Notes: generated from the sequence alone by a model not told the origin. A DNA stretch of 64,000 nucleotides from Candidatus Lokiarchaeum ossiferum (GCA_025839675.1 CP104013.1:3233121-3297120), one strand, 5' to 3'; counted from the first letter of the stretch, positions 32,857 through 58,035 are shown. Numbers and translations: made by a program.

Positions 32857-32861
32857 TTGAA

Positions 32862-33530: not shown

Positions 33531-33558
33531 TATTTGGGATATTAAACAATATTTCCCT

Positions 33559-33891: not shown

Positions 33892-33959
33892 CAATACTAA
33901 TAAGATGGGTTGACAATTGAATTTTTTGGAGAATTTAGGATGCTCAAATAGGCATGAAC

Positions 33960-34187
33960 CTAAAAGATGTTGTTCATGAAACACCCGTAGTGTTGTTCAT
34001 CGAGAGCAAACTTCGCCGACGGGACCGAAAGGGTAAAAAGTTCCTGGAATGTGGATGGGAGGACATTCAATCCATGAAGAAAATCCACGGTGGTCGGATG
34101 GTGATCTAAGGATTCCAGCATGTGACAATTCTCGCTGTCCGTTAAATGTTCTGTGGGGCAGGAGCCACCGTGATCTACCTGTGGCAA
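33960..34187 (-). pseudogene. Decayed N-terminal fragment of the PIN-like cassette gene
   Basis: DSENCHMLESLDHHPTTVDFLHGLNVLPSTFQELFTLSVPSAKFALDEQHYG aligns with LENCHVLEPLPHHPKVVDFLRGLNVPPRILPDLYTLSVPAAKLALYEQHYG. The stretch is GC-rich like the intact gene and is truncated at 75 aa. Confidence 0.45.
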
Positions 34188-34563
34188 GCCGATTTCTTCA
34201 TGTAGTGGTATCCGACGATGCCGATCTTGATCGAAAGAAATCGTTTCCCTATCATCGCATCAAGAGTCCTTCTTCTCTTCAAGCGAGAAATACTATGAAA
34301 GCGGTTTCATTACCCCGATCGACCCTTATTGGTTTTTTTGAATCCGTCCACAATCGATCAATCAAACTTCCGTTTCCCTTATCGGTAAGCTATCTTCCGT
34401 GATTGCAATAATGCCATCATGGGAGCAGTTTTTTTTATTTTATAATTCAATGTATTTTTTATACAGAAAATTCTGGTTAATTGTATTTTTGATTCAGTTA
34501 ATTTAAATATTTAGTGTATAATATAGTCATAAGAAAGGGGTTGAAGGGAATCTCCCCCTTTTT

Positions 34564-35442: not shown

Positions 35443-35446
35443 ATAA

Positions 35447-36349: not shown

Positions 36350-36373
36350 GAGAAATTCTTACTTTCCCTTTTT

Positions 36374-37102: not shown

Positions 37103-37270
37103 GAATCATCTTTTGGTTTCTAAGAAACTATAAAAAGATCACGATTGTGACAGAATTGAGATTTGCGAGTGGTTTTTATAGATCAAAAGCAGTAGTATGG
37201 ATGTAACCATTTGAATACAAAAGGATGAAATGACAAAAGTGGCATTCAAACTTTAGTCCACATCTCTTTA
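37098..37270. promoter_or_regulatory. Conserved divergent promoter/leader module, copy B
   Basis: A TATA-like ctataaaaag (37128) abuts the dyad tcacgattgtga. An oppositely oriented ggtttttatag (37171) follows. The conserved leader ends about 85 bp before the ATG at 37356. Confidence 0.5.
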
Positions 37271-37355
37271 AGACCTAAGGATAATTTTCAGAAAATGTAT
37301 TCGAAACTGGAAACATGAAATTACTAATAACGCAAAACCAAAAAGTGAAAAAAAT

Positions 37356-40841: not shown

Positions 40842-41035
40842 ATTTTTATTGCTTTTTTTTTCTCAGGCTATAAGTATATTTTTTTTCTCATTTTTGATAA
40901 TATTTTCTTGATTTAAACGGAGAAAATATGAGTTATGAAATTTTGATGAAAATCAAGAAATTCTTTTCATTATGAAAACCCGAAAAATAAGAAGAAAAAC
41001 ATCTTTCCGAAACATCCATTGATATCTCATCAAGC

Positions 41036-41190
41036 ACCTATAAAAAGATCACGATTGTGATAGTTGTGCAAATTGCGAGTGGTTTTTATAGATCAAAAGC
41101 AGTATTATGGATGTAACCATTTGAATACAAAAGGATAAATGGACAAAAGTGAGAAACCGATTTTTGTTCCACATCTCCTTAATAGTAATT
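41036..41190. promoter_or_regulatory. Conserved promoter/leader module, copy C (lacks the minus-gene stub)
   Basis: cctataaaaagatcacgattgtgatag...ggtttttatagatcaaaagcagtattatggatgtaaccatttgaatacaaaaggat. Confidence 0.5.
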
Positions 41191-41249
41191 TTTCAATATC
41201 CTTTTTGTATTCTACTTGAACAATATTTAAAAGAAAAAAGGTAAACATA

Positions 41250-44200
41250 ATGAATCAAAAAAAAAGACTGCTATCGTTATATGCGTTGCTTCTTTTGACC
41301 TGTTCCGCCTTAATATATACTAATATGGGAACTGGGGTCGCAGAAATCAATATTTCAGAATGGACAAATGTGCCAAATTATGGTCCTTCGGAATTATCCA
41401 ATTTCATGGATGAAGATCGAGGGGAGGTAATGAAAATATATGATGCCGGATGGGGATTAGTCCAAAAGGATATAATTCCGCAATATATTGCAGGAAACAA
41501 AATTTGGTATTCCTATTGCGTGAAAGTAACTGGTGGGGAATCGAATGATTATGGGGGGGTGAATTTAAGCCCATCTACCATCAACACTGGGGCCGTAGGA
41601 ATGCGAATTCATGCGGGAACGAGTTTAAAATATTGGCTTGGAGATGGACAAGAGCATGATACATTCATTGACGTAGAAACAGATCAATGGTACCACATAG
41701 GATGTTCATATGAGTCTGATGGTCAATTCGAAGCATATTTGGATGGGGAGATGATCCTTTCAGAACAAGCCAAGCCTATCAGCAATTTAAATTATGTTTA
41801 TGCTGCAACATGCTCCCAATCAACTTTTCTGGATGATATCTATGTTGGAGTTTCTAAGGATGAAGCATTTAATAGTTTCCAAGATGAAGTAACTACCATA
41901 CTAATTGATGATTTTTCGGAAGATTCGATTGGGTTTTTACCCTTAGATTGGGAACTAACTGCAGGCGGATATTCATCTTTTAGAACTGTAGAACTAGCCG
42001 AATCTCCATATGATCAGGTTTTAAGAATCTATGATTATGGACAAATTCCCACCGTATACTCAAAAGTGGAAAAAAAAATTCCCGCTGGTTTTGGATCTAT
42101 TGAATGGGATTTAAAAACAGATTCACCAGGAAATAATAATGGTTATTTCGGATTGATGGAAGGGGATAATTGGTTGATATCGATTGGGATAATAAATAAT
42201 CAATTCAGAGTTTATTACCACAATGATCATGCTTCGTATAGTGTCTACGACACAAACGTTGTTGCTTCAAATCAATGGACCCACCTTAAAATGGAGTATG
42301 ATGGCGAGCAAGATGATTGTCGAATATTTGTTAATGGGGTTGAGGTAAGAAGTACACCATTCAATACAAAATATGCCTCTTTTGTTGATGGTCTATATTT
42401 ACACTCAGGAGAAACTGGATCTGGAAAAAGTTATTATGACAACATTCAAGTGAACTGGGTAAAACAGCGTGTGGATTCTTTTATGGAATATGCTGGCATT
42501 ATCAATTTTGATGATAGTTACAATCAAGATCCTCTAGCAAGCTGTCAAGAATGGTCTTCCGATGTTAATTCGGGCTATCAAATCCTAGATGCAGTGACCA
42601 CACACTCAAGTGTATTGGCAATAACCGATTTAGTTTCTTCTTCGAGCTGCTTTACAAAACTAAACATTAATACTCCTTTAGGGGTTGGAGGCTGTGTAGA
42701 AGGATGGATATCTGGATCGAGTATCATAAATAATGCGTATATGGGCATTAATTTTGGGGATAATTACTGGTTATTGTCCGTGGGGATCAATAATGGTCAT
42801 TTTAAAGTTTATCATCGAACGAGCTATTCAACATATAGTACCGCTGTTTCTACCATAGAAGCAAATCCAAATCAATGGTATTTTGTTTGTTTATATTATG
42901 ATGGTATGTCTGATATTTGTACTGTATCGATAAATGGTGTTACTATTGGACAATATAGTCTTTATGACGTTGCTGGAATTACATCAATATATCTCCATTC
43001 GGGAGAAAATGGGGGGGGTACAAGTTACTATGACTCAATTTCGTATGATTGGGCAAATGAATATGATGCAGGAGATGCAAGAATAATAGACTTCGATAGG
43101 GACCATTTAAGCCACAAGTATGAAGAGACCCATATTTATGAATCTGGATTAAAAACTTCTCCTTGGAAATGTGATTCTGATAATGATAGGGTAAATGATT
43201 GGGATGAAATCTGTGGTATCTACGGATATATTACTGATCCAACTCGGATTGACTCTGAACCGATTGGATCTGAAGATGGGCTGAATGATTATTTAGAATT
43301 ATTTAGATATCATACCGATCCAACTCACTATGATTCTGACCGTGATGGGCTGACTGATGGAGATGAAGTCAACTTATATGGCACCGACCCGACCACGGCG
43401 GATTCGGATGGGGATGGGTTGACCGATGGGGAAGAAATAAATGGGTATGATATGATGTATCTAGACGAGCTTTATCATGAACATAAATATGCAACATATT
43501 ATACAAATCCGCTTCTTGTTGATTCAGATAATGATAATTGGAGTGATAAGCAAGAACTTGATTTGATACAAGCTGATTTAGATCAAATTCATGAACCTAA
43601 TCCTGCGGTAGATAACTATCGGTATTTAGATCCAATGTGCCGAGATAGTGATTTAGATTTTCTTCCCGATGGATGGGAAGAATATTATGGACTCGATCCT
43701 TGTGAATATAATTCAGAGCTGGAATTAATCGAAAACAATGTTCCTGATATATATTATTTCTTTGCGCCAATTCAAGAACCAGATCAAGAACGGGTCTCGG
43801 GATTGCGAATTGCCTTGATATTCATTAATCCAGACATAGTTTCGCCAAGTTGGGCAAATTATTACTCTCGAGTCTTCGATAAGCTAAATTATGATGTAGT
43901 GCATGTTTATACAGGTTACACCCGAAATCAGTTTTATAATGAATTGTATCAGTGGACACCCCTTATTCAAGCGGATGATGAATTATTTATAATGATCCAA
44001 GGACATGGGCTGGTGGAGGACAATGAAGAAGAAACTCCGTTGGCGTATTTCACTCTTTATGATGACGATGAGGTGTTTGACCAGGATGTTGGTGAAATTT
44101 CGGGACAAGAGTTTTTAAATCGATTGAAGTTATTTAGTGCCTACAGGAAATGTGTGTTTTTTGATACCTGTTTCGCTGGAAAAGTGCTTGAAAATTTCGA

Positions 44201-44498
44201 TTCGGAAATAACTAAAGTCTTTCAAACTACTGATGCCACCCACGCACAGTATAGAACAGTCAGCAAATTTGATAAGATTATGCAGAATGCTAAGTGGGAG
44301 AAAAGAAATACTTATGTTGCATCATTTTTCTGGGATACTTTAGGTGCAACCACTCTAAGTGAAGATCCAATTTTCAAATATATTCAGGCGGATTTGGCAT
44401 TTGGTTCTCTTTTACCGTGGAGTCGAACGGGTTATCAAGGAGGAACTATTTTGAATCCGGGCTGGAATTATTTGGAACGTTATAATATATTTGTCTAA
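41250..44498 (+). CDS. Giant secreted LamG/jelly-roll protein with TSP3-like Ca-binding repeats and a C-terminal caspase-like peptidase domain
   Basis: Signal peptide. WYHIGCSYESDG.FEAYLDGEMI is LamG_3-like. DSDGDGLTDGEE is present. The C-terminus has LFIMIQGHG ... KCVFFDTCFAG. Confidence 0.55.
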   Translation: MNQKKRLLSLYALLLLTCSALIYTNMGTGVAEINISEWTNVPNYGPSELSNFMDEDRGEVMKIYDAGWGLVQKDIIPQYIAGNKIWYSYCVKVTGGESNDYGGVNLSPSTINTGAVGMRIHAGTSLKYWLGDGQEHDTFIDVETDQWYHIGCSYESDGQFEAYLDGEMILSEQAKPISNLNYVYAATCSQSTFLDDIYVGVSKDEAFNSFQDEVTTILIDDFSEDSIGFLPLDWELTAGGYSSFRTVELAESPYDQVLRIYDYGQIPTVYSKVEKKIPAGFGSIEWDLKTDSPGNNNGYFGLMEGDNWLISIGIINNQFRVYYHNDHASYSVYDTNVVASNQWTHLKMEYDGEQDDCRIFVNGVEVRSTPFNTKYASFVDGLYLHSGETGSGKSYYDNIQVNWVKQRVDSFMEYAGIINFDDSYNQDPLASCQEWSSDVNSGYQILDAVTTHSSVLAITDLVSSSSCFTKLNINTPLGVGGCVEGWISGSSIINNAYMGINFGDNYWLLSVGINNGHFKVYHRTSYSTYSTAVSTIEANPNQWYFVCLYYDGMSDICTVSINGVTIGQYSLYDVAGITSIYLHSGENGGGTSYYDSISYDWANEYDAGDARIIDFDRDHLSHKYEETHIYESGLKTSPWKCDSDNDRVNDWDEICGIYGYITDPTRIDSEPIGSEDGLNDYLELFRYHTDPTHYDSDRDGLTDGDEVNLYGTDPTTADSDGDGLTDGEEINGYDMMYLDELYHEHKYATYYTNPLLVDSDNDNWSDKQELDLIQADLDQIHEPNPAVDNYRYLDPMCRDSDLDFLPDGWEEYYGLDPCEYNSELELIENNVPDIYYFFAPIQEPDQERVSGLRIALIFINPDIVSPSWANYYSRVFDKLNYDVVHVYTGYTRNQFYNELYQWTPLIQADDELFIMIQGHGLVEDNEEETPLAYFTLYDDDEVFDQDVGEISGQEFLNRLKLFSAYRKCVFFDTCFAGKVLENFDSEITKVFQTTDATHAQYRTVSKFDKIMQNAKWEKRNTYVASFFWDTLGATTLSEDPIFKYIQADLAFGSLLPWSRTGYQGGTILNPGWNYLERYNIFV

Positions 44499-44525
44499 AT
44501 TTCGGGATAGTGAGTAGTTTTGCTC

Positions 44526-44864
44526 TCACTTTTTTTTTATTTCTTCTGCATTTAATGAATCCCCAAAAATGATTTCCTTACGCTTTCTATCAACCAACCG
44601 CAAATTTCCCGTAAATAAGGGCATATGAAGCCACGTATTTAATAATTTTTCCCCTCCCAGTACATGATCCCATGATTTTAATATTGTTCTTTCGTTTTTC
44701 GATATTTTCGCAAGGCACGAGCTACAAAAAAAAATAGGTAATGGATATGGAATGGAATTATTGGGTCTTTTTTCGGTTACCGTAATAAATGGGGACATAT
44801 CAGCACGCCACTGTTGACATATGTAACATAAGTTTTTGGAAGGTACTTTGTTTTTGGCCATCAA
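44526..44864 (-). CDS. Small CxxC...CxxC zinc-binding protein (cassette partner)
   Basis: LCYICQQW...FFCSSCLAK. Paralog of 33559..33891. Confidence 0.45.
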   Translation of the reverse strand: MMAKNKVPSKNLCYICQQWRADMSPFITVTEKRPNNSIPYPLPIFFCSSCLAKISKNERTILKSWDHVLGGEKLLNTWLHMPLFTGNLRLVDRKRKEIIFGDSLNAEEIKKK

Positions 44865-44934
44865 TGTTAGCTATGAAGGGCAGACTATTGAAATTTTTGG
44901 CGAACTTCTACTCCTTGGTCTTTCTGAAATTCAC

Positions 44935-45006
44935 TTAGTTTATATTGATGATGAGCCGTAAATTCCAATTCTCGAGATCGAAGGGGACCTCGGAGGGGAG
45001 GGGCAT
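44935..45006 (-). pseudogene. 23-codon stub of the PIN-like cassette gene (MPLPSEVPFDLENWNLRLIININ*)
   Basis: Starts at the conserved gggcatgaatc position of module D. Aligns with MPPFAEFPFCLENCH. Confidence 0.35.
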
Positions 45007-45165
45007 GAATCGCCCTATGTTTTTGGGATGCTATAAAAAAAACTCGCTTGTGACAGAAGTGTAAATTTCGTGTGGTTTTTATAGATCAAAGTCAATATTA
45101 AGCATGTAGCCATTTGAATGCAAAAGGATGAAATGACAAAACTGGAATTCAAGCTATCGTCTTTG
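45001..45165. promoter_or_regulatory. Conserved divergent promoter/leader module, copy D (more diverged)
   Basis: gggcatgaatcgcc...gctataaaaaaaactcgcttgtgacag...gtggtttttatagatcaaag...catttgaatgcaaaaggatgaaatgacaaaa. Confidence 0.45.
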
Positions 45166-45230
45166 CCTCTTCCATTCCTCACCTTGATTTTCTGCCAAAA
45201 GTTCTTCAATGGGATACAGTGTGATAAAAA

Positions 45231-48029
45231 ATGTTGGATAAAAATAAAAAAGGCAAGAAGAAATTGTCCTTGGGATCTAAAATCGGAATGTGCCTCTTCA
45301 TTGTTGCGATGATCTCTACCAATAGCCCAAATCTGATAAAAAGCGCTTCAGCAATTTCCGTGAATGATTGGGAATTAAATCCTGAATGGGAAGGGTGGGA
45401 AGAGGATTCTACTCTTGGAAATCAATATACACGCGTCGCTGAATATTCAGATTTAGGCTCACGAGATCCGGTGTTGGGACTCCGCGATGGTTCCTATTAT
45501 GGAGAAGCGAAAATAAAGAATGAATTTCCCAACCAACCTGCGGGGGCTTTTTCCACCGAATTGAAAATCGTTGAAACCTCTTATGGAAATGAGGATTGTT
45601 CTTTTATTCGATTTTATTCAGGAACAACAATTGCTGCTGCTTTAATTATTGATAATAATTTTAGATATGCTCCTGACCAAGGAGTATCCGATGCCCCTAT
45701 AAGATCGATCAATGTGGAATTGGAGACGTGGTACCACTTTGCTGCTGAATGGAATAGTCAAGCAACTGGAACTAATGAGTGGACATTTTACATTAACGGT
45801 CAAATTATTGCTCAGTTCGATTCGACCAATCCGTTTTCAGGAATTAATAATATCACAATTAGTACATATCTTGGCGATATAACTCATAATCTGACCTTAC
45901 ATAACCTACGACATATGGATGATTCTTCCACAATTAACCAAATTTGGGAAGAAGATAAATTTTTTGAATGGACTAGCGGTGGGACGAATCAATGGTGTCA
46001 TATTTCGACTAACATTTTTGAAGATCGAAACGTGTTAAAACTAAACGATGGTTCATGGGTCGGGGAAGCAATCGCAACAGCGAACTTTGATTTATCCGAA
46101 AAGGGATCGTTTTCTACAAATATTCGAATTGTTGATTCTGGTTATGGAGAAACAGATTGTTTCCTAATTAGATTTCTCTCAGGATCGACTGTGAGCAGCT
46201 ATATGACCATGTGGGAAGATCAAGGTGTAAATACGATCAGATTTTGTGGATCTGACGGCAATTCTTACCCCACAGGATCAACATACTCTACTAATGTGTG
46301 GAATGATGATTTCAAAGCCGAATGGGATTGCTCAGGAAGTGGTAAAGACCAATGGGTTTTTTCTCTGGGAGGCACAGTAATAAAGACATTTGAATCTGAA
46401 AAATACACTTCAGGAATTAATCAAATTTCGATTCGCTCTTTATATAGCAAACCAACCAATTATGTCTATTTTAATGATATTCAAATCGATTCGGATGATG
46501 ATGGTCTATCACGTAAAGAAGAATTGCTCTTTGGCACCGACCCGACCACGGCGGATTCGGATGGGGATGGGCGCGAGGACGGGGTGGAGATTAGATATAT
46601 GACAAATCCTATAATAAATGAAGTCTTTTGGGAAGATTTTGAAGAAATTTCTTTACCAAGTGGATATATTGATAATGGAGATACTATCGGAGAGTGGCAA
46701 GTGGCTAAAGATAATGATGATTTTTGTGATCTATATGTCGATCAGAGTCCAAGCTATTGGGGAGAATCTTCTCAAGTTTTATGGCTTCATACTACTGATG
46801 AAAGTCTCATTGATATTTATAAAAATGATATCGCTTCATCTGGAGATAATTTGGTTTATTTTCGCTCCTCTATTAGTATAGGACAGCTTCAGTATCAACA
46901 GTTTTATGTTGATTTTACCTATGGAACTTCTTCACGCTTGCATTTTCTGTTTTCTAGTGGAGAATTATTTTTCTGGGATTCCTATTATATATATGGGAAA
47001 CACCTTACTGCTTATAAACCTGTATATGATGCAGCGAGCAATGTTGTTGTTTATAGTGAAGATCAAAAAATTGATTTCGAAGTATTCATTGATAAGGACC
47101 AATCCACTTGGACTCTGAAATGGAATGGACAAGCAATAATGAAGCAATATGATCTTGATTTTGGTAATACTTTTAATCGAGTGATTTTAGGCACACCATC
47201 AACATCTTCTGGACGAGTTTTTCTTGATGATCTCGTTTTTGAACATGGGAAAATCACTAAAGATGATTCGAAGACCTTATACAATAAAATAGTTCCGAAT
47301 ATAGTCGCCTGTTTACCTGGGTTCAATGAGGAATTCTCTGAAGATTCTATTGGCGATACTAGCCTTGTAGGATTAGAAATATCATCAATCGTTTCTCGAG
47401 ATACTGAGTATTCCTTCAATTTTCCTTTTGTTTCAGTTAGTTATGATGATGAAATTGAAACGGGTCCACATCATGATGAGGTTCGAACAATTGGTCAAGA
47501 ACATTGGTATTGGTACTATAAAATTTATGGAGATATTGAATTTTACTCAATCGACTTAACAGAGTATTCATATTCTGCTTCCTTTTTGGCATTTTATTCA
47601 TTTGACCCATATTCAACTCAAAACACCGTACTTACCAATCATCCCTATTCAGATCTCCGCGATGATTGCTCGTATTTAAATCAGGAAACATTTGATTATT
47701 GGGTCCAGCCATCATATACTTCTGAATACTCTTGTCCTCAACAATACACGGATTCTGGGAGTCAAACTCAAAAAGGATGGGATTACACCATTAGTAAACA
47801 AACCACATTAGGATTGAATTTTGAGTTATCCTTTGCCACACCAGTCCAATCAATTTCTCTTCCCCTTGGCATATCTTTTGCATTCAATGTTGAACGAGAT
47901 TTAGATTTCTGGTACTATCTGATATTGAAAGATACCCATACTTCTACTAAATCAGTAACTTATAATATGAATGCCAATGTAGCTAAAGGTTTTTATACTT
48001 TTTTTATTAGTGATTTTAAGATTCACTAA
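45231..48029 (+). CDS. Giant secreted LamG/jelly-roll surface protein with one TSP3-like Ca-binding motif
   Basis: Signal/anchor region (KIGMCLFIVAMISTNSP). Repeated ETDCFLIRF..G motifs. DSDDDG...DSDGDGREDG. Confidence 0.55.
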   Translation: MLDKNKKGKKKLSLGSKIGMCLFIVAMISTNSPNLIKSASAISVNDWELNPEWEGWEEDSTLGNQYTRVAEYSDLGSRDPVLGLRDGSYYGEAKIKNEFPNQPAGAFSTELKIVETSYGNEDCSFIRFYSGTTIAAALIIDNNFRYAPDQGVSDAPIRSINVELETWYHFAAEWNSQATGTNEWTFYINGQIIAQFDSTNPFSGINNITISTYLGDITHNLTLHNLRHMDDSSTINQIWEEDKFFEWTSGGTNQWCHISTNIFEDRNVLKLNDGSWVGEAIATANFDLSEKGSFSTNIRIVDSGYGETDCFLIRFLSGSTVSSYMTMWEDQGVNTIRFCGSDGNSYPTGSTYSTNVWNDDFKAEWDCSGSGKDQWVFSLGGTVIKTFESEKYTSGINQISIRSLYSKPTNYVYFNDIQIDSDDDGLSRKEELLFGTDPTTADSDGDGREDGVEIRYMTNPIINEVFWEDFEEISLPSGYIDNGDTIGEWQVAKDNDDFCDLYVDQSPSYWGESSQVLWLHTTDESLIDIYKNDIASSGDNLVYFRSSISIGQLQYQQFYVDFTYGTSSRLHFLFSSGELFFWDSYYIYGKHLTAYKPVYDAASNVVVYSEDQKIDFEVFIDKDQSTWTLKWNGQAIMKQYDLDFGNTFNRVILGTPSTSSGRVFLDDLVFEHGKITKDDSKTLYNKIVPNIVACLPGFNEEFSEDSIGDTSLVGLEISSIVSRDTEYSFNFPFVSVSYDDEIETGPHHDEVRTIGQEHWYWYYKIYGDIEFYSIDLTEYSYSASFLAFYSFDPYSTQNTVLTNHPYSDLRDDCSYLNQETFDYWVQPSYTSEYSCPQQYTDSGSQTQKGWDYTISKQTTLGLNFELSFATPVQSISLPLGISFAFNVERDLDFWYYLILKDTHTSTKSVTYNMNANVAKGFYTFFISDFKIH

Positions 48030-48593
48030 TATTTTTTTTTAACCTAGCCAAATTTTTAGTATATTTTGAAGCCCTAGAGAAAAAGAATAGTCCTGAATTT
48101 CTTAACTCGAAAAAAAACTTTATAGGAAAAACTTGCCAAAGGGGTTAAAAAAAGATTTTGATCCCAAAGGGGAAGAAAACTGACAGGTGTGGAATTGGAA
48201 GCGATTTTGTGACTGTTTCATCGGTTTTGATCAAATGATAAAAGATCAGTTATTAGGAAGGGATGAATGACTATCTGAAAAATCACTTTTGGGACTGAAT
48301 TAAGCGGAGTATTAGATAATATAGAAAGTGTATAGAGGTTGAAAAAGATTCGAGGAAGCATAGCGAACCAACAGGATTTGCAAAAGAAAGGACCGCCAAC
48401 ATGAGAAATCAAGGTTATGAGACTACCACCATCCAAAATGACTACATGAAATTCATATCGCGTCTATAATTGAAGATATTTTTTGGTGTGAATCTTTATC
48501 CTAAGAAAAGTCAAACCTAGCAAAATAAAGCGGTTTTTTTTAATACTTCTACTTTACATTTCAATCCGATAGGAAAAGTAGTGGATGGATGCT

Positions 48594-48752
48594 TTACTCG
48601 TTCTCTGGTATTAAAGCAGCCTTCAATTTCCGAACCGCTTCCTTGATCACTTCTGCCCGTGAACTATACCCAAATTTGGGATTCTCGAGGATTTTATCAA
48701 TATATTCTTCCACAAAAGGTTCAGGCAACGAAATCGAAGCAAATTTTCCCAT
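48594..48752 (-). CDS. CopG/Arc/MetJ-type ribbon-helix-helix protein (52 aa). Missed by the ORF track because it is under 60 aa.
   Basis: Hand translation gives MGKFASISLPEPFVEEYIDKILENPKFGYSSRAEVIKEAVRKLKAALIPENE*. The strand SISLP...Y, the FGYSSRAEVIREA helix and its length are the classic RHH signature. Confidence 0.55.
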   Translation of the reverse strand: MGKFASISLPEPFVEEYIDKILENPKFGYSSRAEVIKEAVRKLKAALIPENE

Positions 48753-49435
48753 ATTTGCTCTAGAGATGCCCTACTATTTATGTTTGTTGCTTGGTTTAAG
48801 TTCAATTATGTATCCATGATATATAAGTGAAGTATGATAGATCGATAAATTATATTTATAAGGATGCGTTTCATACAATTATGTATCAAACACAGATCAA
48901 GCACGAGTAATGCTGATTCTTTTTGAACATGTCTTCCGAGTTTATAAGTTTCAAAAAGTAATTACAGTATCATAAATCTGGAAAAACAGATCTGTTTGGT
49001 AACCTATAGATTAGCGACAAACGTCCCAAGAGGTCTCATTATGTCTCAAAAACCTAGAATATCAATAACAACAGGGCAAAGGTCAACATCCTGTGTCAAT
49101 CCTACCAAGTCTCCGTCAGAACCGCACGGATCTCCCATATCTGCCATCAATCCATTGGCAGATCAATCGCTTTCTCCTTCTGGATCTAAATTTTATTATC
49201 AGTATTTTAACGATCAAAATCATATTGAATGTTTTTGAACGTGAGCGATTATTATGGGAAAGCACTCATGAGGAACTCAGCTACTTACTTTTACATGTAT
49301 CCAATAAAAATGACCTTATATCATCTCTATCAACAAAAAAGAGCTTCAAAATTAAAGGATCAGATAATCTTACCTTATGCTAGATTTCAATAAAAAATCA
49401 TGATCAGATTTAATTTTGGAATATTAGAAAAAGAT

Positions 49436-49541
49436 TGGTGGGAAAGGTGGGCTTCGGACCCACGACCTCTGCCTTATCAGGGCAGCGCTCGATTGCCTTC
49501 ATATGAAGAGATACATACAATCCAGGCTAAGCTACTCTCCC
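49436..49541 (-). tRNA. tRNA-Ile(GAU) candidate with a roughly 28-nt non-canonical (D-loop) intron and a genomically encoded 3' CCA
   Basis: Minus strand: GGGAGAG-TA-GCTT-AGCCTGGAtt[GTATGTATCTCTTCATATGAAGGCAA]TC-GAGC-G-CTGCC-CTGATAA-GGCAG-AGGTC-GTGGG-TCCGAAG-CCCAC-CTTTCCC-A-CCA. The acceptor stem is 7 bp with one G-U. The anticodon loop CUGAUAA gives GAU. The T-loop reads TCCGAAG, which is atypical (no U55). About 30 extra nt lie between the D-loop and the D-stem 3' strand, flanked by GATTG/CAATC pairing. Confidence 0.55.
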
Positions 49542-50124
49542 GTTTCTGTTTTTACAAAACTGTCTGATATTTAACAATTTTATAATAGTCGGGATAAACA
49601 GACTATAATTGTCACTCATGATGGAACAATTAAAAAATTTCCGATTTTCATTCCATAAAAAGTTCTCTGTTTCAATCCGAACAGTGGTTTGACAGTTTTA
49701 GGGGATTCAATTTACATGGGTGGCATTTGCTTCGTGGGGGGGAATTGTCGAAAGTATATAAGAATCTAGGATCTAAAAAAAAAGTCGAGTTGTGCGAAAA
49801 AAACCAAGAAATCGCAATGTGAGAAGGACAATTTTTTACAACAACTGAGCAAAGAAAAACCATAGAATACTAGGAATTATAAAATGGATTTCAGAGATTT
49901 GAGTGAAGAAGGGGTAAAGTTTTAAAAAAAATTGAAAGAAATAGTTTTTTGAAAGAAAGTGGGAAGATTCCACATAATTCTTCAAGTAATTTATTATTTA
50001 CAAGCGTCTCAAGTTCTACATCGGTGGAGGATTTTAAAATCAAAGAGATTTTTTCATTTGTCATGGATCTTTTTTGATCGAATCTTTTTTAATTATTTAT
50101 GACTAAATATAAATTAAGATAAAA

Positions 50125-50589
50125 ATGAAAGACAAACAAAATGTAGGAAATTCTGGAGAATATTATATTGCAGCTTTCCTTTCTGCACGAAATTTTATAG
50201 TAACCATCACCCTAGGAAGAGCTATTGGCTATGATTTATTAGCGGTCAATCCAAGCGGAAAGTTAATCAAAATATCTGTAAAAACTCGCGATTCAAACTC
50301 AACTCATAGATTTGTGTTATCAGAAAAATCTGAGTCATTAAAATCCGAGGATCTGTTCTATGCATTTGTTAGAACGAATAAATTTGAATCTCTACCCGAT
50401 TTTTGGATGATTCCATCAAAAATTGTTGCTGAGCAAACATATAATAGCCATAAGAAATGGCTTCAAGAAGATAGCAATCACAAGGATAATACAATGCGAA
50501 CATTTTGGGTGAAAAATCATGATCTTTTCCCAAAGAATTGGGGAGAAACAATGGAGCAATATCATAATAGTTATTCTAGTTTGCTATAG
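50125..50589 (+). CDS. PD-(D/E)xK restriction-endonuclease-fold protein, Hjc-like
   Basis: GEYYIAAFLSARNFIV...GYDLLAVNPSGKLIKISVKTRD follows the Hjc pattern E...(P)DLIA...K.IEVKS, with S in place of the second acid. Confidence 0.35.
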   Translation: MKDKQNVGNSGEYYIAAFLSARNFIVTITLGRAIGYDLLAVNPSGKLIKISVKTRDSNSTHRFVLSEKSESLKSEDLFYAFVRTNKFESLPDFWMIPSKIVAEQTYNSHKKWLQEDSNHKDNTMRTFWVKNHDLFPKNWGETMEQYHNSYSSLL

Positions 50590-50840
50590 TTTTTTTTTAA
50601 GAATATTATCTCAGATAATGTTTTTTCATATTGATCATTCATAGAATGCAAGAAGAAATTGGATTTTTCCAAAGATAAAGAGGTCTGGAAAAAAAGTTGG
50701 ACTTCTTTTTTAGAATTTTTTCTCATTTTGAGGAAAAATTTCTTTCAGGGAAAATCTCAGTTCATCCTTTTGCATTCAATATTTGAACACTATTCATAGG
50801 GTGATATTTCTATTTAAACACCGTGGTAATAGCAAAATAA

Positions 50841-51107
50841 TCACTCATGTGATCTTTTTATATTTATCCATTGTTTCAAATCGAGCATATCTTCCTCGTA
50901 TTTTTCAACGAGAGTCCGATATTTCTTTTGATAGATGCGTTCGGGAAGCAAGCCAACACTCCGGAACAACAACATCATATTCAAAAATTCCAGTTTCATT
51001 TCAAACGGCCAACTATCGATGGGGTCATCCTTATAAACGGAGACTCGAGAGATCCCCGCCGATCCCAAGTTGATTTCAAAATGGCACTTTTTATGCGGTT
51101 TGTTCAC
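50841..51107 (-). CDS. Hypothetical protein. One of three mutually overlapping ORFs; the minus-strand one looks most protein-like.
   Basis: Balanced composition (MNKPHKKCHFEINLGSAG...KYRTLVEKYEEDMLDLKQW). The two overlapping plus-strand frames are low-complexity. Confidence 0.2.
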   Translation of the reverse strand: MNKPHKKCHFEINLGSAGISRVSVYKDDPIDSWPFEMKLEFLNMMLLFRSVGLLPERIYQKKYRTLVEKYEEDMLDLKQWINIKRSHE

Positions 51108-51489
51108 TTTTTTCCCTCTTGCCCATCCAAAATGTTCTTATAGTATTTATTAGATCCCCACCTTTTAAAATAGATTTTGAAAAGAAAATAAGGAAAAAAA
51201 AATCCAGCAAAAAGATAGAAAGATATAAATAAATTATCGGTAACTTGCTACGGTAGTATAAACATAGTGAAATGTTGCCCCAGCATTGATACATTTGGGG
51301 TAGATTTCTTTAGGAATTGTATTAATCGAAGATATTATTTCCGTTAACGCTAAAACGAAACTTTTATACCGTCAAACTCCCGTATGAGAGTAAAAGTGCA
51401 GCCAAACCAGATAGGAATAAAATGGAGTTGAATGATGTAATAAAAAAAAATTTGTAATAAAAGGGGTTTTGGGAAATTGAAAGGGAGTT

Positions 51490-51762
51490 TTATTTCTTCA
51501 TTTTATTCCCAGAGGGTTTGTTGTTCTTTAAACGACGATTCTCAATAGAATTTGCTTGAGCTCGAGTTTTTGTAGTCTTCACAGATACTTTTGAAAAGTG
51601 TTTACTTGGATCCTGATGATGTTCTTTGATCCTTCTGTTAAGATTATTCGTCATCCCAGTATAAGCGGTTTTTCCTGATTTAGACTTTAAATTATATACA
51701 CCAGGGGATTTTGGAATTTTAGAACGACTTTTTTTTGTGTTAGAATATGTTTTCGATGTCAT
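51490..51762 (-). CDS. Small stand-alone GIY-YIG nuclease-domain protein (YhbQ/UPF0213-like)
   Basis: GVYNLKSKSGKTAYTGMTNNLNRRIKEH matches GIY-x10-YIG...N...R...H. 90 aa. Confidence 0.6.
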   Translation of the reverse strand: MTSKTYSNTKKSRSKIPKSPGVYNLKSKSGKTAYTGMTNNLNRRIKEHHQDPSKHFSKVSVKTTKTRAQANSIENRRLKNNKPSGNKMKK

Positions 51763-51876
51763 ATTAATTATTTCCTATTTTTTTTTACATTTATTGTGAG
51801 TGTCAAGGGGCATTAGCCGATTCCTCGCCTCAAATAAAGATTCAATTTAAATTTCTGCGAGATAAGGAATGTCAAA

Positions 51877-52014
51877 TCACTTGTATTCATAAGATTTTTT
51901 TGCATCCTTTCTCTTCTTACGCCATGAACCATCTTTGTTTCGGGTTCGGGGTTCCATTCCACCTTTTGAAGGTACATGAGGTCCAGAACGTTTTCCAGCG
52001 CGTCTATCTACCAA
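51877..52014 (-). CDS. Possible 45-aa highly basic protein with a TTG start
   Basis: aggtga lies 7 nt upstream of the TTG. The frame reads VDRRAGKRSGPHVPSKGGMEPRTRNKDGSWRKKRKDAKKSYEYK*. Confidence 0.2.
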   Translation of the reverse strand: MVDRRAGKRSGPHVPSKGGMEPRTRNKDGSWRKKRKDAKKSYEYK

Positions 52015-52384
52015 ATTTTAATTCACCTGAAAGTTGTGGTAACAATAAGTTGATGTATTGAAAGCTTTTCGCTGTAATCAATCTCAAACATTATTGATGT
52101 TATTTTGTGAATATTATACTTCACCAGAGATCTAGGGGAGATGTTCCAAGTAATTTCGGTGAGGTTTCAATGTAACCGAAGTCCGAACTTCCTTGAATTG
52201 AGTTTTCCTTCCAATCTCTAAATATATTATAACGTACCTCTTTTTAAAACTAAGTAAGATTTTGTCAAATATTTTTGTCAGTTATTGTCGATTTTGAATT
52301 TAATTAAGTTCTTTCATTGTGTTCAATAGAAAAATCATAATTTATATATACATATAAAAACAATAAACACGCTAGAGTGTTTAT

Positions 52385-53179
52385 ATGAATAATATAATTC
52401 CTCAAGAACGAAATATTTTAATTGTACCAATTGGATTAGAAATAGACCGCGTAATTGCAGGATGCAAACTATATCCAATTAATGTTATATATCTCTTACA
52501 TAATCCGCTTGTGGATTCAACCAAATTTGCAGTAGAACGATATTCAAGTTATTTTGCAAAAGAAGTTAAGAATAGGATAGGGAGTTCTTTCAATAAAATA
52601 GAAGAAGAAATTACAAATTTAGGTTCTTTTCATGATTCATTAACATGTTTGAACAGAATAATGAAATTGGAAGAAAAAATAGAAAGATTGGGACATATCT
52701 ACATAAATATATCGACAGCATCAAAAACCTTCGCAATGGCAGCTTATTTATTTGCAAGTAGAAAACCAGAACTTTTCACCTTATTCTATTTACAATCAAA
52801 CAAATACATCCTACTAGAGCATTTTAATAAAGAAAATTCTTCTTTGGATAAACTGGAAGAAGAATTTAGAAAATCTGGTTTAACTCAAGGCGATTTTGAA
52901 GTAGAAGAAATTCCAATTTTGAAAACAGAATGGTTCAATAAAGAGGAAGCAGAAATTTTACGTATTTTCGATGGAAATAGATCTTTTGATTCATTATTGG
53001 AGTTGATAGCTAATCTGAAACAGGAAAATAATCCAAAAAACAGAATGAAGATCAGAAGAATACTTAACAAATTTGAAGATCTTGGAATCATTCAGATGAA
53101 AAAACGTGGAAAAAATTTAATTATAACTCCTACAAAAAAACACAGCAGTATTTCAAATATGACTGGAGTTTTTTACTAA
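52385..53179 (+). CDS. Putative regulator with an N-terminal Rossmann-like (CARF/Csa3-like or DUF6293-like) domain and a C-terminal winged helix
   Basis: ILIVPIGLEIDRVIAG...INISTASKTFAMAAYLFA is the Rossmann-like core. The C-terminal EAEILRIFDGNRSFDSLLELIANL...LNKFEDLGIIQMKKRGKNLIITPT is wHTH-like. Confidence 0.3.
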   Translation: MNNIIPQERNILIVPIGLEIDRVIAGCKLYPINVIYLLHNPLVDSTKFAVERYSSYFAKEVKNRIGSSFNKIEEEITNLGSFHDSLTCLNRIMKLEEKIERLGHIYINISTASKTFAMAAYLFASRKPELFTLFYLQSNKYILLEHFNKENSSLDKLEEEFRKSGLTQGDFEVEEIPILKTEWFNKEEAEILRIFDGNRSFDSLLELIANLKQENNPKNRMKIRRILNKFEDLGIIQMKKRGKNLIITPTKKHSSISNMTGVFY

Positions 53180-53464
53180 TCCTCACATTTTTAGATAGAA
53201 AAAAACCCCCCTTGATGTTATTTGTGCTGATGCAGTCTCAACAGCATAAGGTTTCAAAAGGTGTGCATTAGCTAGTATTAGATTTTTAATGCATTACACT
53301 CAATGAATTAGCCCATTAATCGAATCTCAAATTTCATAATTATTTTGGAGTAAAAATGCAATATCACGAGCTCGAGTAGAGATTGAGTAAAATAAATTGC
53401 CTTCCAACTGAAAATATAAAAGAATAAATTTCAAATTAAATATGTCCATTTTTTGATTGATCGT

Positions 53465-53572
53465 ATATTGAATGCCTACTCATAAAAAATAAAACCATAA
53501 ATACTTCCTCAGCGAAGTAATCACATACTTTTTTGATGGAATAGATACTTAAGTATGACCCCATGGACCAAT
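53465..53572. repeat. Direct repeat of about 108 bp, copy 1, at the 3' flank of the giant minus-strand gene
   Basis: atattgaatgcctactcataaaaaataaaaccataaatacttcct...gtaatcacatac...ttgatggaa...tacttaagtatgac is about 93% identical to 57597..57712. Confidence 0.85.
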
Positions 53573-53668
53573 TTTCTCTCATTTCAAATTTCGAATTAGG
53601 ATCTTTGCTCCTTTAAATATTTTTCATAGATACTGGAAAGAAAGAAAAAAGAAAAGAAAAAAGAATAA

Positions 53669-56600
53669 TTAGCCTCGTATTGTTGAAATAGTCATGAAAT
53701 TTGAAGTAAATCTTCCATCTAATGGTTGGTTCGTACCATCAATGCTCATATAGAAACCTGTAGTTATTTCGAAATTAACAATATAGGAAATTGCACTAGA
53801 TTCAGAAACTAGATCAGTAAAGAAATGCTTCATTGTTATTTCTCCATTAAAATATTTCGCTGGATTCATTGTCAAATATCGTGAACCTAAATCAAAATCC
53901 CAAGAAAAATAGTTCCCTTGAATTGATTTTGTTAGAAAATTTGGTTGAAAAGCAGAAACCATCCCACCTCCAACATTTAATGCGCCAACTAACTCGTCTA
54001 ATGGCCCTAAGGGACCATCTGCTATATTACTACCGAATAGTAATAATAATTCAAAAATTGCATAGGCCTCTGTTCCGACGCTTGCATCATATTCATCACC
54101 AAGATTGATACCATCGGTCTCATAATTGATTTCAGCATCCCCTGAACTGGTCCTGGACACATCAAGGTCCAATGGATGTACTGGAACACCATCAATAAGA
54201 ATTCCCATTGATATGGTTAATCCTTGAAGATATGCCCACACATCGAAACCATTATAGTCTGGATGATTGATCTTCGTAGATTCAACACCAGTTTGGAACC
54301 TTAAATCAACTTCTCCATTTGTAGCACTAAAATCATGAAAACCTCCATCTTCTTCAAGCAAACCCCAATCATATTGGAGACCAAAATGACCTCCCAAATA
54401 TCCAGAGCGAGGATCTGAACTGGAAAATTCGTGTTTGGGTCCAGCCGTCATATCATCATGTAAATTATAATAATTATTATCAAGAAATTGATAGGTTGTT
54501 GGATTAGAATAGCAATTTTCATAATAATTAGAGATTTTTCCAAATTTGATGTTATCTACAAGAATATCTTGGGTTCCTTTAAAATAGAAACTTAAATAAC
54601 TATACGAACTATCAGGAAGAACAGCTATCATAGGATAAGACACACGGCTTACCCCATCAATTCGAAAATCATAAGTATTGGTGTATCCATTCATTTCGAC
54701 TTGAATGTTGTATAATGAATTCGGAGACAACTCTATTTGCTGAATTTTCTCACCTGTAGGAGTGAAAAAACCGATACTGTATCCATAAAACTTTATAAAT
54801 AGATTATAGTTCGTCTGAGGAATCATATTTGACCAGCCTAATTGTAACCACATTTCATCTATTCGAGTGCTTGTAAATAAATCAAAGCTAATTACATTAT
54901 TCTCAAAATTCTTTGAAGGATACACTTTTTTATTGAATCCCATAAATCCTTCAGACACATGGACCTTTAAGGCTTTTGAAGATTCTGTACCAAAGCCAAC
55001 AGAATCTGCAACTACTTCAGTATATTGGTTTGAATTTTCTGAGAAACTAATTTCCCATCCATCTGGATTTGATCCGATGCTATCATATTCAAAATGTCCA
55101 ATATTCCAGCTTAAATCACCTCTGTCGTACCCATTTTTAGGATCTGTTTTAAAAATTTTCACTTCTAATCCATCATTGAACCCATCCTCATCCGAATCAG
55201 CATCCATCGGGTCGGTACCCAAGGCAATTTCTTCCCCATCTAAAAGTCCGTCATCATCCGAATCAGAATCTAAAGGATCCAATCTATTTGATGAAATAAT
55301 CACATTATCTAGGTAAGTACTATATCCAGAATAACTGTTATAAGTTTCAAAAACAACACGTGAAATATAGGAAGCAGGTGAATAAAAAGCAAGATTTGAA
55401 CCTATAGAGGAGGAACCTAGGAAAACCGAAAATGTATCCGTTGCAGTATCCCAACTGATTTTGAGATCTTTTTTCCATTCATTACTCGCAATATTTTCCA
55501 ACAAATGCCAAGAAGATCCGTCGTGATACTGCAGCCCATTATGGCCTCCATAACTTACAATTGCCATTAGAATTGCATTTGAACTACCTTGCCGTAAGAG
55601 TATATAAGTTATTTTCGCAGTATCAGTGGACATAATATCAAAAATCATTGATCCTTTTGTAGTATATTCAAAATTTTCATAAATACCTGCAGAACCTGTT
55701 CCATGATCATACAATATAGCAGTATCATCATTCGGCCATGCTCCTGATCCAACGATGCATCCAGACCCTTGAATTTTCGTCCATCCTCCAAAAGGATTTT
55801 CATTCGCAGGGAATTCCCAAGAATTTAACTCGCGATTTCCATTTATATATGAAAATTCCACACAATCGCTTAATCCATCGTTGTCAGAATCAGAATTTGT
55901 TGGATCAGTATGTTCTCTAATTATAACATCGTCCACGTAGGCAGAATAACCGGTTTGGCTACTATAGGTTTGGAACTGCATTCGAGAAATGGAGCTGACA
56001 GGATTATAGAAATCAAGGTTTTCAAATTTTTCTCCCGAATCTGGAAAATATATATTACAGGTGTCTGATAAGGTGTTCCATGATATCTTGATAGATAACC
56101 AATCAGTATAGCTACATTCTTTCAACAAATTCCATTGGGTACCATCATGATATTGTATGCCATCTCCTTCTGCTGTACGATAATTTGCCATTAATATCGC
56201 ATTTGTGCTTCCTTGCTTCAAGAGAATATAGGTTAATTTAAAATTCGCATCAGTCCTGAATTCGAACTCCGCTGAACCAGAAATTAAGGAAGAATCAAAA
56301 TTAGCATAAATTCCAGCGGTTCCCGTGCCATAATCATAAAGGCGAACGGCATTTGGATACGGCGTATTAACGCTATCTACCACTGCACAACCGGATCCTG
56401 TAACGATGTTCCAATCCATCCCTAAGTCATCATCTACGCCATTATCTGTAAAATCCCAATCATAGAGTAAATTACTTCCTCCGATTCCACACATCTCATC
56501 AAAATCGGTCAATCCATCCCCGTCAGTATCGAAATCCTGTTCATAAAGAATTTCCATTTCCTCTTCAGAGAATGCTCTATTAAACAAACCAATTTCATCA

Positions 56601-57295
56601 ATTTTTCCATCAAACCATCGATTATCAGCTGATCGATAGGTTCCGATATTCATGCTAGTAATCGGTTCTAAAGATCCACCTGTGGAGACTTGTCCTTCCA
56701 ATTGACCGTTTAAATATAATTTAAATCCATTGGTAGTATCTTTCTGATAAGTTGCCGCTAATTGATACCACTGGTTTGGAACAATTATTGTGGTTCCTGA
56801 AGCGACTCGCGTACTTGAATCTCTAAGATATCCTTTTGCAATGGGTGTTGGACCTTTTTCGATGCATATCGAAATGGACCACAATGGGGTTGTTTCTAAT
56901 ATAAAGCGCCTACCTTCTAATCCCCCTCCTCCTCCATCCCATTTAAACCATGCGGAGATTGTATATTCTGTAGAACCATCGGGAAGAGTCTTATGTGGCA
57001 CCGAAACATAATCATTGGAACCATCAAAATTATAACAAGAACTTGATCTTCCCAACCGATCGGTGGCAGGGGTTGCACCATGAAAAACACCATTAAAATC
57101 GTTTACAGGCTCATTAGCATTTCCATCCAAATCCCACCGCGCATATAGATCATCAGCATAAGATAGAAGAGCGGAACTTGGTTGTAGAAATTGTTGAATA
57201 GTTAAGGGTAAGCACAAACATATCAACAAAGTGGCAGTAATTTTTGTTTTATATTTCATTTTTCTCATTTTTGAGTTGTTTTCTATTCTTATCAA
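53669..57295 (-). CDS. Giant secreted LamG-domain surface protein with duplicated internal modules and a TSP3-like Ca-binding motif
   Basis: Signal peptide. Textbook LamG_3-like region (ATDRLGRSSSCYNFDGSNDYVSVPH...NQWYQLAATY...LYLNG). Internal repeats (ILL(K/R)QGSTNAILMA). DADSDEDGFNDG. Confidence 0.55.
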   Translation of the reverse strand: MIRIENNSKMRKMKYKTKITATLLICLCLPLTIQQFLQPSSALLSYADDLYARWDLDGNANEPVNDFNGVFHGATPATDRLGRSSSCYNFDGSNDYVSVPHKTLPDGSTEYTISAWFKWDGGGGGLEGRRFILETTPLWSISICIEKGPTPIAKGYLRDSSTRVASGTTIIVPNQWYQLAATYQKDTTNGFKLYLNGQLEGQVSTGGSLEPITSMNIGTYRSADNRWFDGKIDEIGLFNRAFSEEEMEILYEQDFDTDGDGLTDFDEMCGIGGSNLLYDWDFTDNGVDDDLGMDWNIVTGSGCAVVDSVNTPYPNAVRLYDYGTGTAGIYANFDSSLISGSAEFEFRTDANFKLTYILLKQGSTNAILMANYRTAEGDGIQYHDGTQWNLLKECSYTDWLSIKISWNTLSDTCNIYFPDSGEKFENLDFYNPVSSISRMQFQTYSSQTGYSAYVDDVIIREHTDPTNSDSDNDGLSDCVEFSYINGNRELNSWEFPANENPFGGWTKIQGSGCIVGSGAWPNDDTAILYDHGTGSAGIYENFEYTTKGSMIFDIMSTDTAKITYILLRQGSSNAILMAIVSYGGHNGLQYHDGSSWHLLENIASNEWKKDLKISWDTATDTFSVFLGSSSIGSNLAFYSPASYISRVVFETYNSYSGYSTYLDNVIISSNRLDPLDSDSDDDGLLDGEEIALGTDPMDADSDEDGFNDGLEVKIFKTDPKNGYDRGDLSWNIGHFEYDSIGSNPDGWEISFSENSNQYTEVVADSVGFGTESSKALKVHVSEGFMGFNKKVYPSKNFENNVISFDLFTSTRIDEMWLQLGWSNMIPQTNYNLFIKFYGYSIGFFTPTGEKIQQIELSPNSLYNIQVEMNGYTNTYDFRIDGVSRVSYPMIAVLPDSSYSYLSFYFKGTQDILVDNIKFGKISNYYENCYSNPTTYQFLDNNYYNLHDDMTAGPKHEFSSSDPRSGYLGGHFGLQYDWGLLEEDGGFHDFSATNGEVDLRFQTGVESTKINHPDYNGFDVWAYLQGLTISMGILIDGVPVHPLDLDVSRTSSGDAEINYETDGINLGDEYDASVGTEAYAIFELLLLFGSNIADGPLGPLDELVGALNVGGGMVSAFQPNFLTKSIQGNYFSWDFDLGSRYLTMNPAKYFNGEITMKHFFTDLVSESSAISYIVNFEITTGFYMSIDGTNQPLDGRFTSNFMTISTIRG

Positions 57296-57455
57296 AATGT
57301 AGTCAACATATTTTTCTAAGATTCTTGCAAATTTTGAGAAAAAATATACTTCTTTTAATCATGTAGGCTTCAAAAATTAGTGACTACTTTGCATTTTGGT
57401 TTTGAACATATATATTATAGAAAAAAATCTATTTAAACTCGGTGGTGTTAGCAAA

Positions 57456-57488
57456 ACTGACACAATCATGATCTTTTTATAGATTCCT
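57456..57488 (-). promoter_or_regulatory. Cassette promoter motif on the minus strand (ggaatctataaaaagatcatgattgtgtcag)
   Basis: Reverse complement of the TATA-plus-dyad motif seen upstream of the plus-strand giant genes. Lies about 160 bp upstream of the ATG at 57295. Confidence 0.5.
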
Positions 57489-57596
57489 AGAACACAAAAT
57501 ACGCAAGAAGTTATATTACAAGATGAAAAAAATAGAAAATTTCATAGATATAATGGATGGAGAATGGAAAAATCGGTTTTAACGATTTTTTTTGAA

Positions 57597-57712
57597 ATAT
57601 TGAATGCCTACTCATAAAAAATAAAACCATAAATACTTCCTTATCGAAGTAATCACATACATTTTTGATGGAAAAGTTACTTAAGTATGACACCGTATGG
57701 TGGGTTGACCAA
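57597..57712. repeat. Direct repeat of about 116 bp, copy 2, beyond the promoter of the giant minus-strand gene
   Basis: See copy 1. It ends at the ATG of 57712..58035. Confidence 0.85.
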
Positions 57713-58035
57713 TGAAAATAAATCGATTCATAGATAGAAACGTTTCACGCATTAGCATCTTTGAAGAAATGGTGCGAAACATCAGTAAAGAGACAAATCT
57801 AAGCCGGGATTCTATCAGTTCGGTGGGAGAGGAGGCTTTAAGATCATGGGAAGAAGCGACAAATCGAGATCCTCAACGATTATTTTTTCAAAGCAAAGAA
57901 GTAATTTTGGTAGAGATTGATAAGATGATTCAGGAATTTAGAGAGAAAATTACTCCGATGATAGATTCTGATGTTTCTATCAAAAAAAGTGTAGATCTTT
58001 TCCAAGATTCGTTGGGTAAAATGTTTGAAATCTAA
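57712..58035 (+). CDS. Hypothetical small helical protein
   Basis: 107-aa charged ORF. Confidence 0.3.
   Translation: MKINRFIDRNVSRISIFEEMVRNISKETNLSRDSISSVGEEALRSWEEATNRDPQRLFFQSKEVILVEIDKMIQEFREKITPMIDSDVSIKKSVDLFQDSLGKMFEI

Follow-up and report, generated by a model that had tools for sequence, protein, structure and literature searches.

In the genome of Candidatus Lokiarchaeum ossiferum strain B35, a giant gene for a LamG domain-containing protein lies between two direct repeats of about 100 nucleotides (nt), and the question raised by this locus is what these repeats are: the ends of a mobile element, the boundaries of a cassette that comes and goes, or part of a neighbouring gene. The DNA analysed is a stretch of 64,000 nt (GCA_025839675.1, CP104013.1:3233121-3297120), hereafter the window, and positions are counted from its first letter. 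A preliminary description, made from the sequence alone, had regarded the 4.1 kb between the repeats as a unit of cassette promoter plus giant gene, which might be inserted or lost by homologous recombination. It appears from the present analysis that the repeat is a duplicated leader of the adjacent gene, p107, at the border of a variable genomic island, and not the end of a mobile element; the probability of this reading is put at roughly 85%.

Structure of the repeat pair

Alignment of the two copies, which the preliminary description had called for, confirmed the direct repeat. The left-hand copy (copy A, 53465-53562) and the right-hand copy (copy B, 57597-57694) are 94% identical in an ungapped alignment of 98 nt, in which the 45 nt at the left end are identical and all six mismatches fall within the remaining 53 nt. 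When one 8-nt gap is introduced, the homology extends to ACCAAT (53567-53572 and 57706-57711), just 5' of the ATG at 57712, and the limits originally proposed (53465-53572 and 57597-57712) are therefore correct; the identity of about 93% given with them applies to the ungapped 98 nt and not beyond, where the gap is needed. A 40-nt core of the repeat occurs exactly twice in the window when up to three mismatches are allowed, and 0 of 100 dinucleotide shuffles matched.

The repeat as the leader of p107

The locus was compared with those of strain B36 (CP163304, locus L017), a contig from a related species with ~84% nucleotide identity (L014), and two contigs from more distant metagenome-assembled genomes (L016 and L021). 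In all four, the orthologue of p107 is preceded by the same ~100 nt, which are present in a single copy in B36, L016, and L021. Therefore, the repeat is the leader of p107 (promoter and/or 5' untranslated region) and not a dispersed element. According to the RNA sequencing (RNA-seq) contigs L004 and L005, transcripts of p107 reach at least 57612, at least 100 nt ahead of the gene. Of the two copies, copy B serves as the working leader (Table 1). In copy A, the Shine-Dalgarno (SD)-like GGTGGG and the ATG have been lost, through an 8-nt deletion and an altered base at the start codon.

The flanks of the two copies also differ. Since copy A keeps its native left flank (Table 1), whereas the DNA to the left of copy B is cargo and is unrelated to the native upstream region of p107, the cargo interrupts what is a single native p107 upstream region. 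The resulting order is the distal upstream part with copy A, then the cargo, then copy B with p107. A TATA-like TTAAATAT is located at 53436-53443, within the extension to the left of copy A; the assignment of a TATA box and of a transcription start site (TSS) near this copy is tentative.

B-type and single copies of the leader differ at 3-4 of 98 positions between lineages with ~84% identical coding DNA, and only 3-4 of 98 positions separate copy B from the leaders of B36 and L014. Copy A is the most diverged copy, with 6-9 differences from each of the others; when the A copy of L014, in which the leader is likewise duplicated (see below), is included, the two A copies differ from all other copies at 5-9 of 98 nt. 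Judging from these comparisons, the 94% identity between copies A and B is due to strong conservation of the leader among lineages, and neither recency nor the terminus of a mobile element. It was also observed that the leader (96-97%) is much better conserved than the adjacent coding DNA (~84%), without a significant RNA fold or a conserved small open reading frame (ORF), and that the differences between duplicate leader copies spare the left 45 nt (1/11).

The preliminary description had named a widespread intergenic element as the finding that would speak against it. GTDB genomes and viral contigs, scanned with a 20-mer, gave 0 matches to the repeat, as did a degenerate 37-nt repeat pattern in JGI metagenomes and viral contigs, and the dispersed-element reading was rejected on these scans; in the sequences searched, the repeat is the leader of one gene. 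A p107 profile had no match in metagenomes, and no relative that would point to the function of p107 was found in Pfam, PADLOC, or PDB.

As for products of the repeat itself, the six substitutions alter five residues in the ORFs on the minus strand (53436-53582 and 57511-57693; by eye), and plus-strand mini-ORFs, also inspected by eye, are not kept in B36 or L014 and were rejected as coding. A structured cis-regulatory RNA or small RNA gene was ruled out, since the folds of the two strands are not significant against shuffled sequences (z-scores of -0.87 and -0.98) and Rfam gave no match at the gathering score; a small ACTTC/GAAGT hairpin is disrupted in L016 and L021 (by eye).

Table 1. Coordinates of the features at the p107 locus of strain B35, as positions in the window.
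Feature	Position	Strand	Description
Repeat copy A	53465..53572	+	truncated, decaying copy of the p107 leader (-115..-1)
Repeat copy B	57597..57711	+	working p107 leader; SD-like GGTGGG at 57699-57704, 8-13 nt before the ATG
p107 (NEF87_002788)	57712..58035	+	107-aa (amino acid) conserved hypothetical protein; opens the conserved right flank (p107, membrane protein, small GTPase, TraB)
Native upstream extension of the p107 leader	53390..53464 (75 nt)	+	homologous to -211..-116 of the leader region in B36 and L014
Variable island	19962..57596	.	between the conserved 309-aa gene and the p107 leader
Giant gene	53669..57268	-	1199 aa (NCBI: 1196-aa LamG domain-containing protein); Laminin_G_3, bacterial TSP3 repeats, signal-peptide-like N-terminus
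Left end of the cargo, 3' of the giant gene	53573..53668	-	T-rich tracts on the minus strand straight after the stop codon
Giant-gene promoter module	57428..57499	-	CTATAAAAAGATCA(C/T)GATTGTG...(G)GTTT(TT/AA)ATAGAT: TATA-like box and near-palindrome
Orphan promoter module, sixth copy	50809..50862	-	includes part of the conserved leader TTGAATGCAAAAGGATGAA; no gene downstream
tRNA-Ile(GAU) gene	49438..49541	-	29-nt D-loop intron; within a conserved ~320-nt element, 49417-49743

A variable island between conserved flanks

The gene order around the repeats is conserved: ABC transporter, PhoU-like, (309-aa gene), variable interval, p107, membrane protein, small GTPase, and TraB. The interval measures ~38 kb in B35, 4.6 kb in B36, ~8.3 kb in L014, 1.1 kb in L016, and 0.6 kb in L021. 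In B35 it contains a PDC-M23A/B pair (with a Hachiman-like helicase), giant LamG/TSP3 genes, a tRNA element, and CARF, PD-(D/E)XK, and GIY-YIG genes. The p107 locus forms the right-hand border of this island, which is of the flexible kind, with like flanking genes, differing content in relatives, surface and defence cargo, and a tRNA gene at the site. Pfam scans of the island ORFs (those of at least 150 aa plus a few smaller ones) found no integrase or transposase.

The p107 leader also marks a change in the relationship between B35 and B36. From 57595 rightwards the two strains are 99.0% identical, whereas the left-hand genes (ABC transporter, PhoU, and 309-aa gene; 15884-19961 against L017 1-4078) are 86.7% identical; copy A sits in the left block, which is 70-87% identical to B36, and copy B in a block that is 96-99% identical. 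On the right, the mismatch density is 4.2% at 57607-58380 and 0.53% further on, and this drop marks a recombination tract ending inside the gene next to p107. The average nucleotide identity of the two genomes is 97.2% (bioRxiv 10.64898/2026.02.13.705702). As the left-hand genes fall well below it, at 86.7%, the diverged block reaches beyond the island. The left limit of the block was not reached, since an exact-protein look-up of the 193-aa Pro_CA gene gave no B36 contig.

An independent duplication in a related species

In L014 the leader of p107 is present twice as well, at 5327-5595 and 9790-10058 (269 nt, 90% identity). The limits of the duplication differ from those in B35, spanning -211..+58 in L014 and -115..-1 in B35. 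The L014 cargo is a protein of 1107 aa that lacks a signal peptide and any Pfam domain and is 70% identical to the neighbour gene of p107 in B36; to the left of the first L014 copy lies a 648-aa paralogue of the same protein (47% identity). This arrangement represents two diverged alleles of the neighbour gene, each with its own leader copy. When the two L014 copies are compared by segment, 20% of positions differ at -207..-157, 14% in the 58 coding nt, and 4.5% in the core, and such unevenness fits the joining of already-diverged haplotypes and not copying in place.

Between the A copies of B35 and L014 there are 9 differences in 98 positions, more than separate either from its own B copy; therefore, they are not orthologous and decay independently. 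Orthology of the two cargoes was rejected too, as the 1107-aa proteins of L014 and B36 are unrelated to the LamG gene. In L014 (5541-5660), the distal copy was seen to keep the p107 ATG, which opens an ORF of ~37 codons made of the p107 N-terminus and unrelated sequence, followed by 140 nt without a match anywhere.

With the relatives at hand, the cassette view can be qualified. The repeats do delimit a discrete unit, in which the giant gene has its own promoter module at 57428-57499. The proposed gain and loss of this unit stands in so far as the unit is strain-specific and absent from B36, which has one repeat copy; its loss through recombination between the repeats is possible, but unproven. 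No allele was found in which one repeat copy cleanly connects the two flanks seen in B35, B36 having another left flank and another neighbour gene. Nor are the repeats a general cassette boundary, since the three giant genes on the plus strand lack flanking copies and the L014 duplication brackets a non-surface protein. The proposed variation in surface-gene content is evident, for the giant genes at this locus differ greatly between strains and species.

Origin of the duplication

On the preferred reading, two alternative haplotypes of the island border were joined in tandem. An incoming fragment with the order neighbour gene, leader, p107 and so forth would recombine homologously in p107 or to the right of it, and its other end would be joined illegitimately at the start of p107, at -1 in B35 and at +58 in L014. 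The process would be homology-facilitated illegitimate recombination, or else a fragment with the leader on it would have been inserted in an equivalent way by a single crossover. Its outcome would be the strain-specific giant LamG/TSP3 gene with a regulon-type promoter between the two copies, and copy A would decay afterwards. We give even odds to this stacking of two border haplotypes through one homologous and one illegitimate end.

Several points weigh against this account. The mechanism and its direction are what we infer from end-products only, and a donor haplotype, in which the gene for the 1199-aa protein stands beside p107 with no copy A, was not seen in the genomes compared. The two A copies, although of independent origin, both stop less than 60 nt from the start of p107 (-1 and +58), which is a coincidence if illegitimate joining is random, albeit with n = 2. 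The count of two repeat copies covers the 64,000-nt window of the 6-Mb B35 genome. In addition, the mismatches between copies A and B are clustered to the right of the 45-nt identical stretch (6/6, P about 0.025), and with the L014 duplicates added 10 of 11 differences fall outside the left 45 nt (P about 0.012); this clustering may just as well point to a crossover or att-like core, to gene conversion, or to a function of the left half that is kept in copy A.

A transposon or insertion sequence with target-site duplication was rejected, because there is no transposase, there are no inverted repeats (none was found at the cargo ends, 53573 and 57596), and the duplication is ~100 nt long against the 2-15 bp expected. 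Another possibility is that the leader was duplicated in situ when the cargo was inserted, for example by replication template switching or by the filling-in of a long staggered break, and that copy A then decayed. The greater divergence of copy A, with its SD-like motif and ATG gone, would agree with such a course, and so would a repeat that seems to run from a possible TSS to the start codon. However, the A/B divergence of 6% plus an indel exceeds the mean divergence of 2.8% between B35 and B36, and yet B36 is without the duplication. The ends of the L014 copies (14-20% diverged, against 4.5% in the core) and the different identity blocks in which copies A and B sit relative to B36 also argue against copying in place, and we consider it unlikely. 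Site-specific or Campbell-type integration would have brought a circular cassette with an attP-like leader into the leader of p107 as attB, so that the repeats would be attL and attR and excision would be precise. Direct repeats bounding a discrete strain-specific unit, a 45-nt identical stretch followed by diverged sequence, a tRNA gene within the island, and the duplication of the same leader in a second lineage (L014) would all be in keeping with it, and the contigs L002 and L003 (discussed below) are structured exactly like an excision product. It is nevertheless very unlikely, since no integrase or recombinase is found in the cargo or in the Pfam-scanned island ORFs, the cargo is a single gene with its promoter, the repeat does not overlap the tRNA gene, its limits are not alike in B35 and L014, the ends of the two L014 copies are 14-20% diverged, viral contigs gave 0 matches, and no information is to be had from L002 and L003, which stem from RNA-seq and a k of 31, shorter than the 45 shared nt. 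A more speculative variant would make the p107 leader, above all its invariant left half (34-45 nt), a docking site where single large genes are captured time and again, and can be released precisely, by means of a trans-acting recombinase encoded elsewhere. It would explain the two duplications, the pseudo-copy ends at most 60 nt from the start, the 45-nt identity, and the empty-site-like contigs; we hold it to be highly improbable, but if true, the docking site would be an integron-like or att-like platform for gene capture in an Asgard archaeon.

The last alternative is an on/off switch that is still at work, in which the giant gene pops out frequently in the B35 culture, so that filled and empty alleles are mixed, which would be one kind of presence/absence variation in surface proteins. 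With 45 perfect nt in a 98-nt repeat of 94% identity, homologous recombination between the copies is plausible, and two contigs, L002 (SRR32148623) and L003 (SRR32148621), consist of the left flank, one B-type copy, and p107, with flanks that are 100% identical; L004 and L005 break at the repeat, as expected when A-type k-mers are present in the samples. However, the contigs of SRR32148620-23 begin 19-36 nt upstream of start codons and stop at the ends of operons: at the GTPase gene they start 19-28 nt ahead of the ATG, after TraB they stop 26 nt past the stop codon, and a 14.3-kb contig has its ends, by arithmetic, 30 nt before one operon start and 27 nt before the start of a convergent operon. 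Since the contig ends track operon starts and ends, these are RNA-seq assemblies. Public B35 transcriptomes (SRX27494461-66) exist and may correspond to the SRR3214862x runs. Logan contigs are built on a de Bruijn graph with k = 31, and the 45 shared nt are longer than k; thus every 31-mer of L002 and L003 is present in the filled genome, tip-clipping can produce the join, and the two contigs are no proof of an empty site. The assemblies made from DNA (three samples) are interrupted at the repeat just as expected for the filled allele, with contigs that fit k = 31 exactly: L006 ends at 53494, L007 covers 53480-57626 (4147 nt), and L001 starts at 57612. An empty-site allele based on L002 and L003 was therefore rejected, and frequent pop-out is decidedly unlikely. 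More generally, k-mer assemblies of RNA-seq can yield 'empty-site' contigs that mimic excision products. The ends of contigs L018-L020, L024, and L025 from these runs, at 58892, 9934-9940, and ~24259, were noted as likely TSSs, 19-36 nt before start codons, a much shorter distance than the 100 nt or more seen for p107 transcripts.

Cargo gene and promoter module

The ORF of the giant gene is open from a TTG (53669-57295), and the ATG at 57268 was used for the 1199-aa call. No full-length homologue of the protein was found among 5.8 billion protein clusters, in which its domains alone match, and the 3' flank at 53573-53668 has no homologue at other loci. L. ossiferum has no S-layer and shows only unordered surface densities (bioRxiv 10.64898/2026.02.13.705702). 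In the absence of an S-layer, the giant LamG/TSP3 proteins, which are strain-specific, are candidates for interactions with other cells or with viruses.

The 'cassette promoter' proposed for the giant gene is real, as the same module stands before four other genes. It is 50-70 nt long (CTATAAAAAGATCAC-GATTGTGAC ... GGTTTTTATAGAT) and also precedes, in gene orientation, the plus-strand genes at 32104, 37356, 41250, and 45231. Its sites before the five genes are at 31818-31844, 37111-37153, 41038-41072, ~45060-45110, and 57428-57499, and its near-palindrome is GATCACGATTGTGAC. As a sequence signal of a possible regulon, the common module suggests that one regulator may act on the giant surface-protein genes. 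The orphan module (Table 1) is probably the relic of a lost giant gene; since it has no gene, giant genes appear to be lost also by routes that do not use the repeat.

Two observations were made on other giant genes. Three collinear direct repeats, with 81%, 83%, and 71% identity, link 32877-33453 with 43845-44421, and a 222-aa ORF (32862-33530) is similar to the C-terminal portion encoded by the giant gene at 41250-44498, so that either a fragment of a gene or a domain common to both may be present here.

tRNA element and defence genes

The tRNA-Ile gene scores 23.6 bits against the Rfam tRNA model (E = 0.022), under the gathering threshold; ARAGORN misses the intact gene and calls tRNA-Ile(gat) once the intron is removed. 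The ~320-nt element around it is 92% identical to its counterparts in B36 and L014 and is inverted in L016 and L021, where the same tRNA stands in the opposite orientation immediately upstream of p107.

The minus strand at 20203-24232 encodes a DEAD-box helicase of 1071 aa with a 280-aa partner protein; the two match the PADLOC candidate defence system PDC-M23B/A nearly end to end, with scores of 1167 and 234 bits, and the helicase is in addition a match to Hachiman HamB. Immediately to the left of copy A, a 264-aa CARF-family protein (PADLOC CARF3, Pfam HFX_2341_N) is encoded at 52385-53179 on the plus strand, and small genes nearby encode PD-(D/E)XK (50125-50589) and GIY-YIG (51490-51762) proteins.

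Comparison with known systems

Direct repeats of ~100 nt that flank a single-gene unit and share an identical core stretch resemble attL/attR as well as the attC sites of chromosomal integrons (Vibrio cholerae repeats, VCRs). Unlike either, the repeat described here belongs to one particular gene as its leader, occurs twice in the window, and has boundaries that vary between events, and no integrase was found; unlike attC, it has no significant hairpin (z about -0.9). The arrangement also resembles the pop-out deletions of archaeal genetics, in that a 98-nt repeat with 94% identity could delete exactly the 4132-bp unit and leave a B-type copy, but no sign of such a deletion was seen in DNA.

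Homology-facilitated illegitimate recombination is known from natural transformation in Acinetobacter and Streptococcus, where a one-sided homology anchor is combined with an illegitimate join. In product structure and divergence pattern the B35 and L014 duplications would fit it, with foreign DNA joined in conserved homology on one side and at a non-homologous point on the other, part of the anchor duplicated, and limits that vary with each event; unlike the cases in Acinetobacter and Streptococcus, that of Lokiarchaeum is read from end-products only.

In marine bacteria and archaea, flexible islands of additive and replacement types occupy fixed hotspots, often beside tRNA genes, and carry genes for surface structures and defence. 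The island described here is like them in its fixed position between conserved flanks in five related genomes, with content that is wholly different in each; in its cargo, which in B35 consists of giant surface proteins and defence candidates (PDC-M23, CARF); in the tRNA-Ile in or next to it; and in the divergence of its flanks, which is raised and falls with distance from the island. It is unlike them in that the leader of a border gene was partly duplicated twice independently, with alternative alleles in tandem, and that no integrase was found. Overall, the B35 locus is ordinary genomic-island biology and a fresh example of known genome dynamics, with no new mobile element. In a rare cultivated Asgard archaeon, one border of a hypervariable surface and defence island can now be fixed to the base, and the island appears to grow by the stacking of alternative alleles, without a recognisable mobile element.

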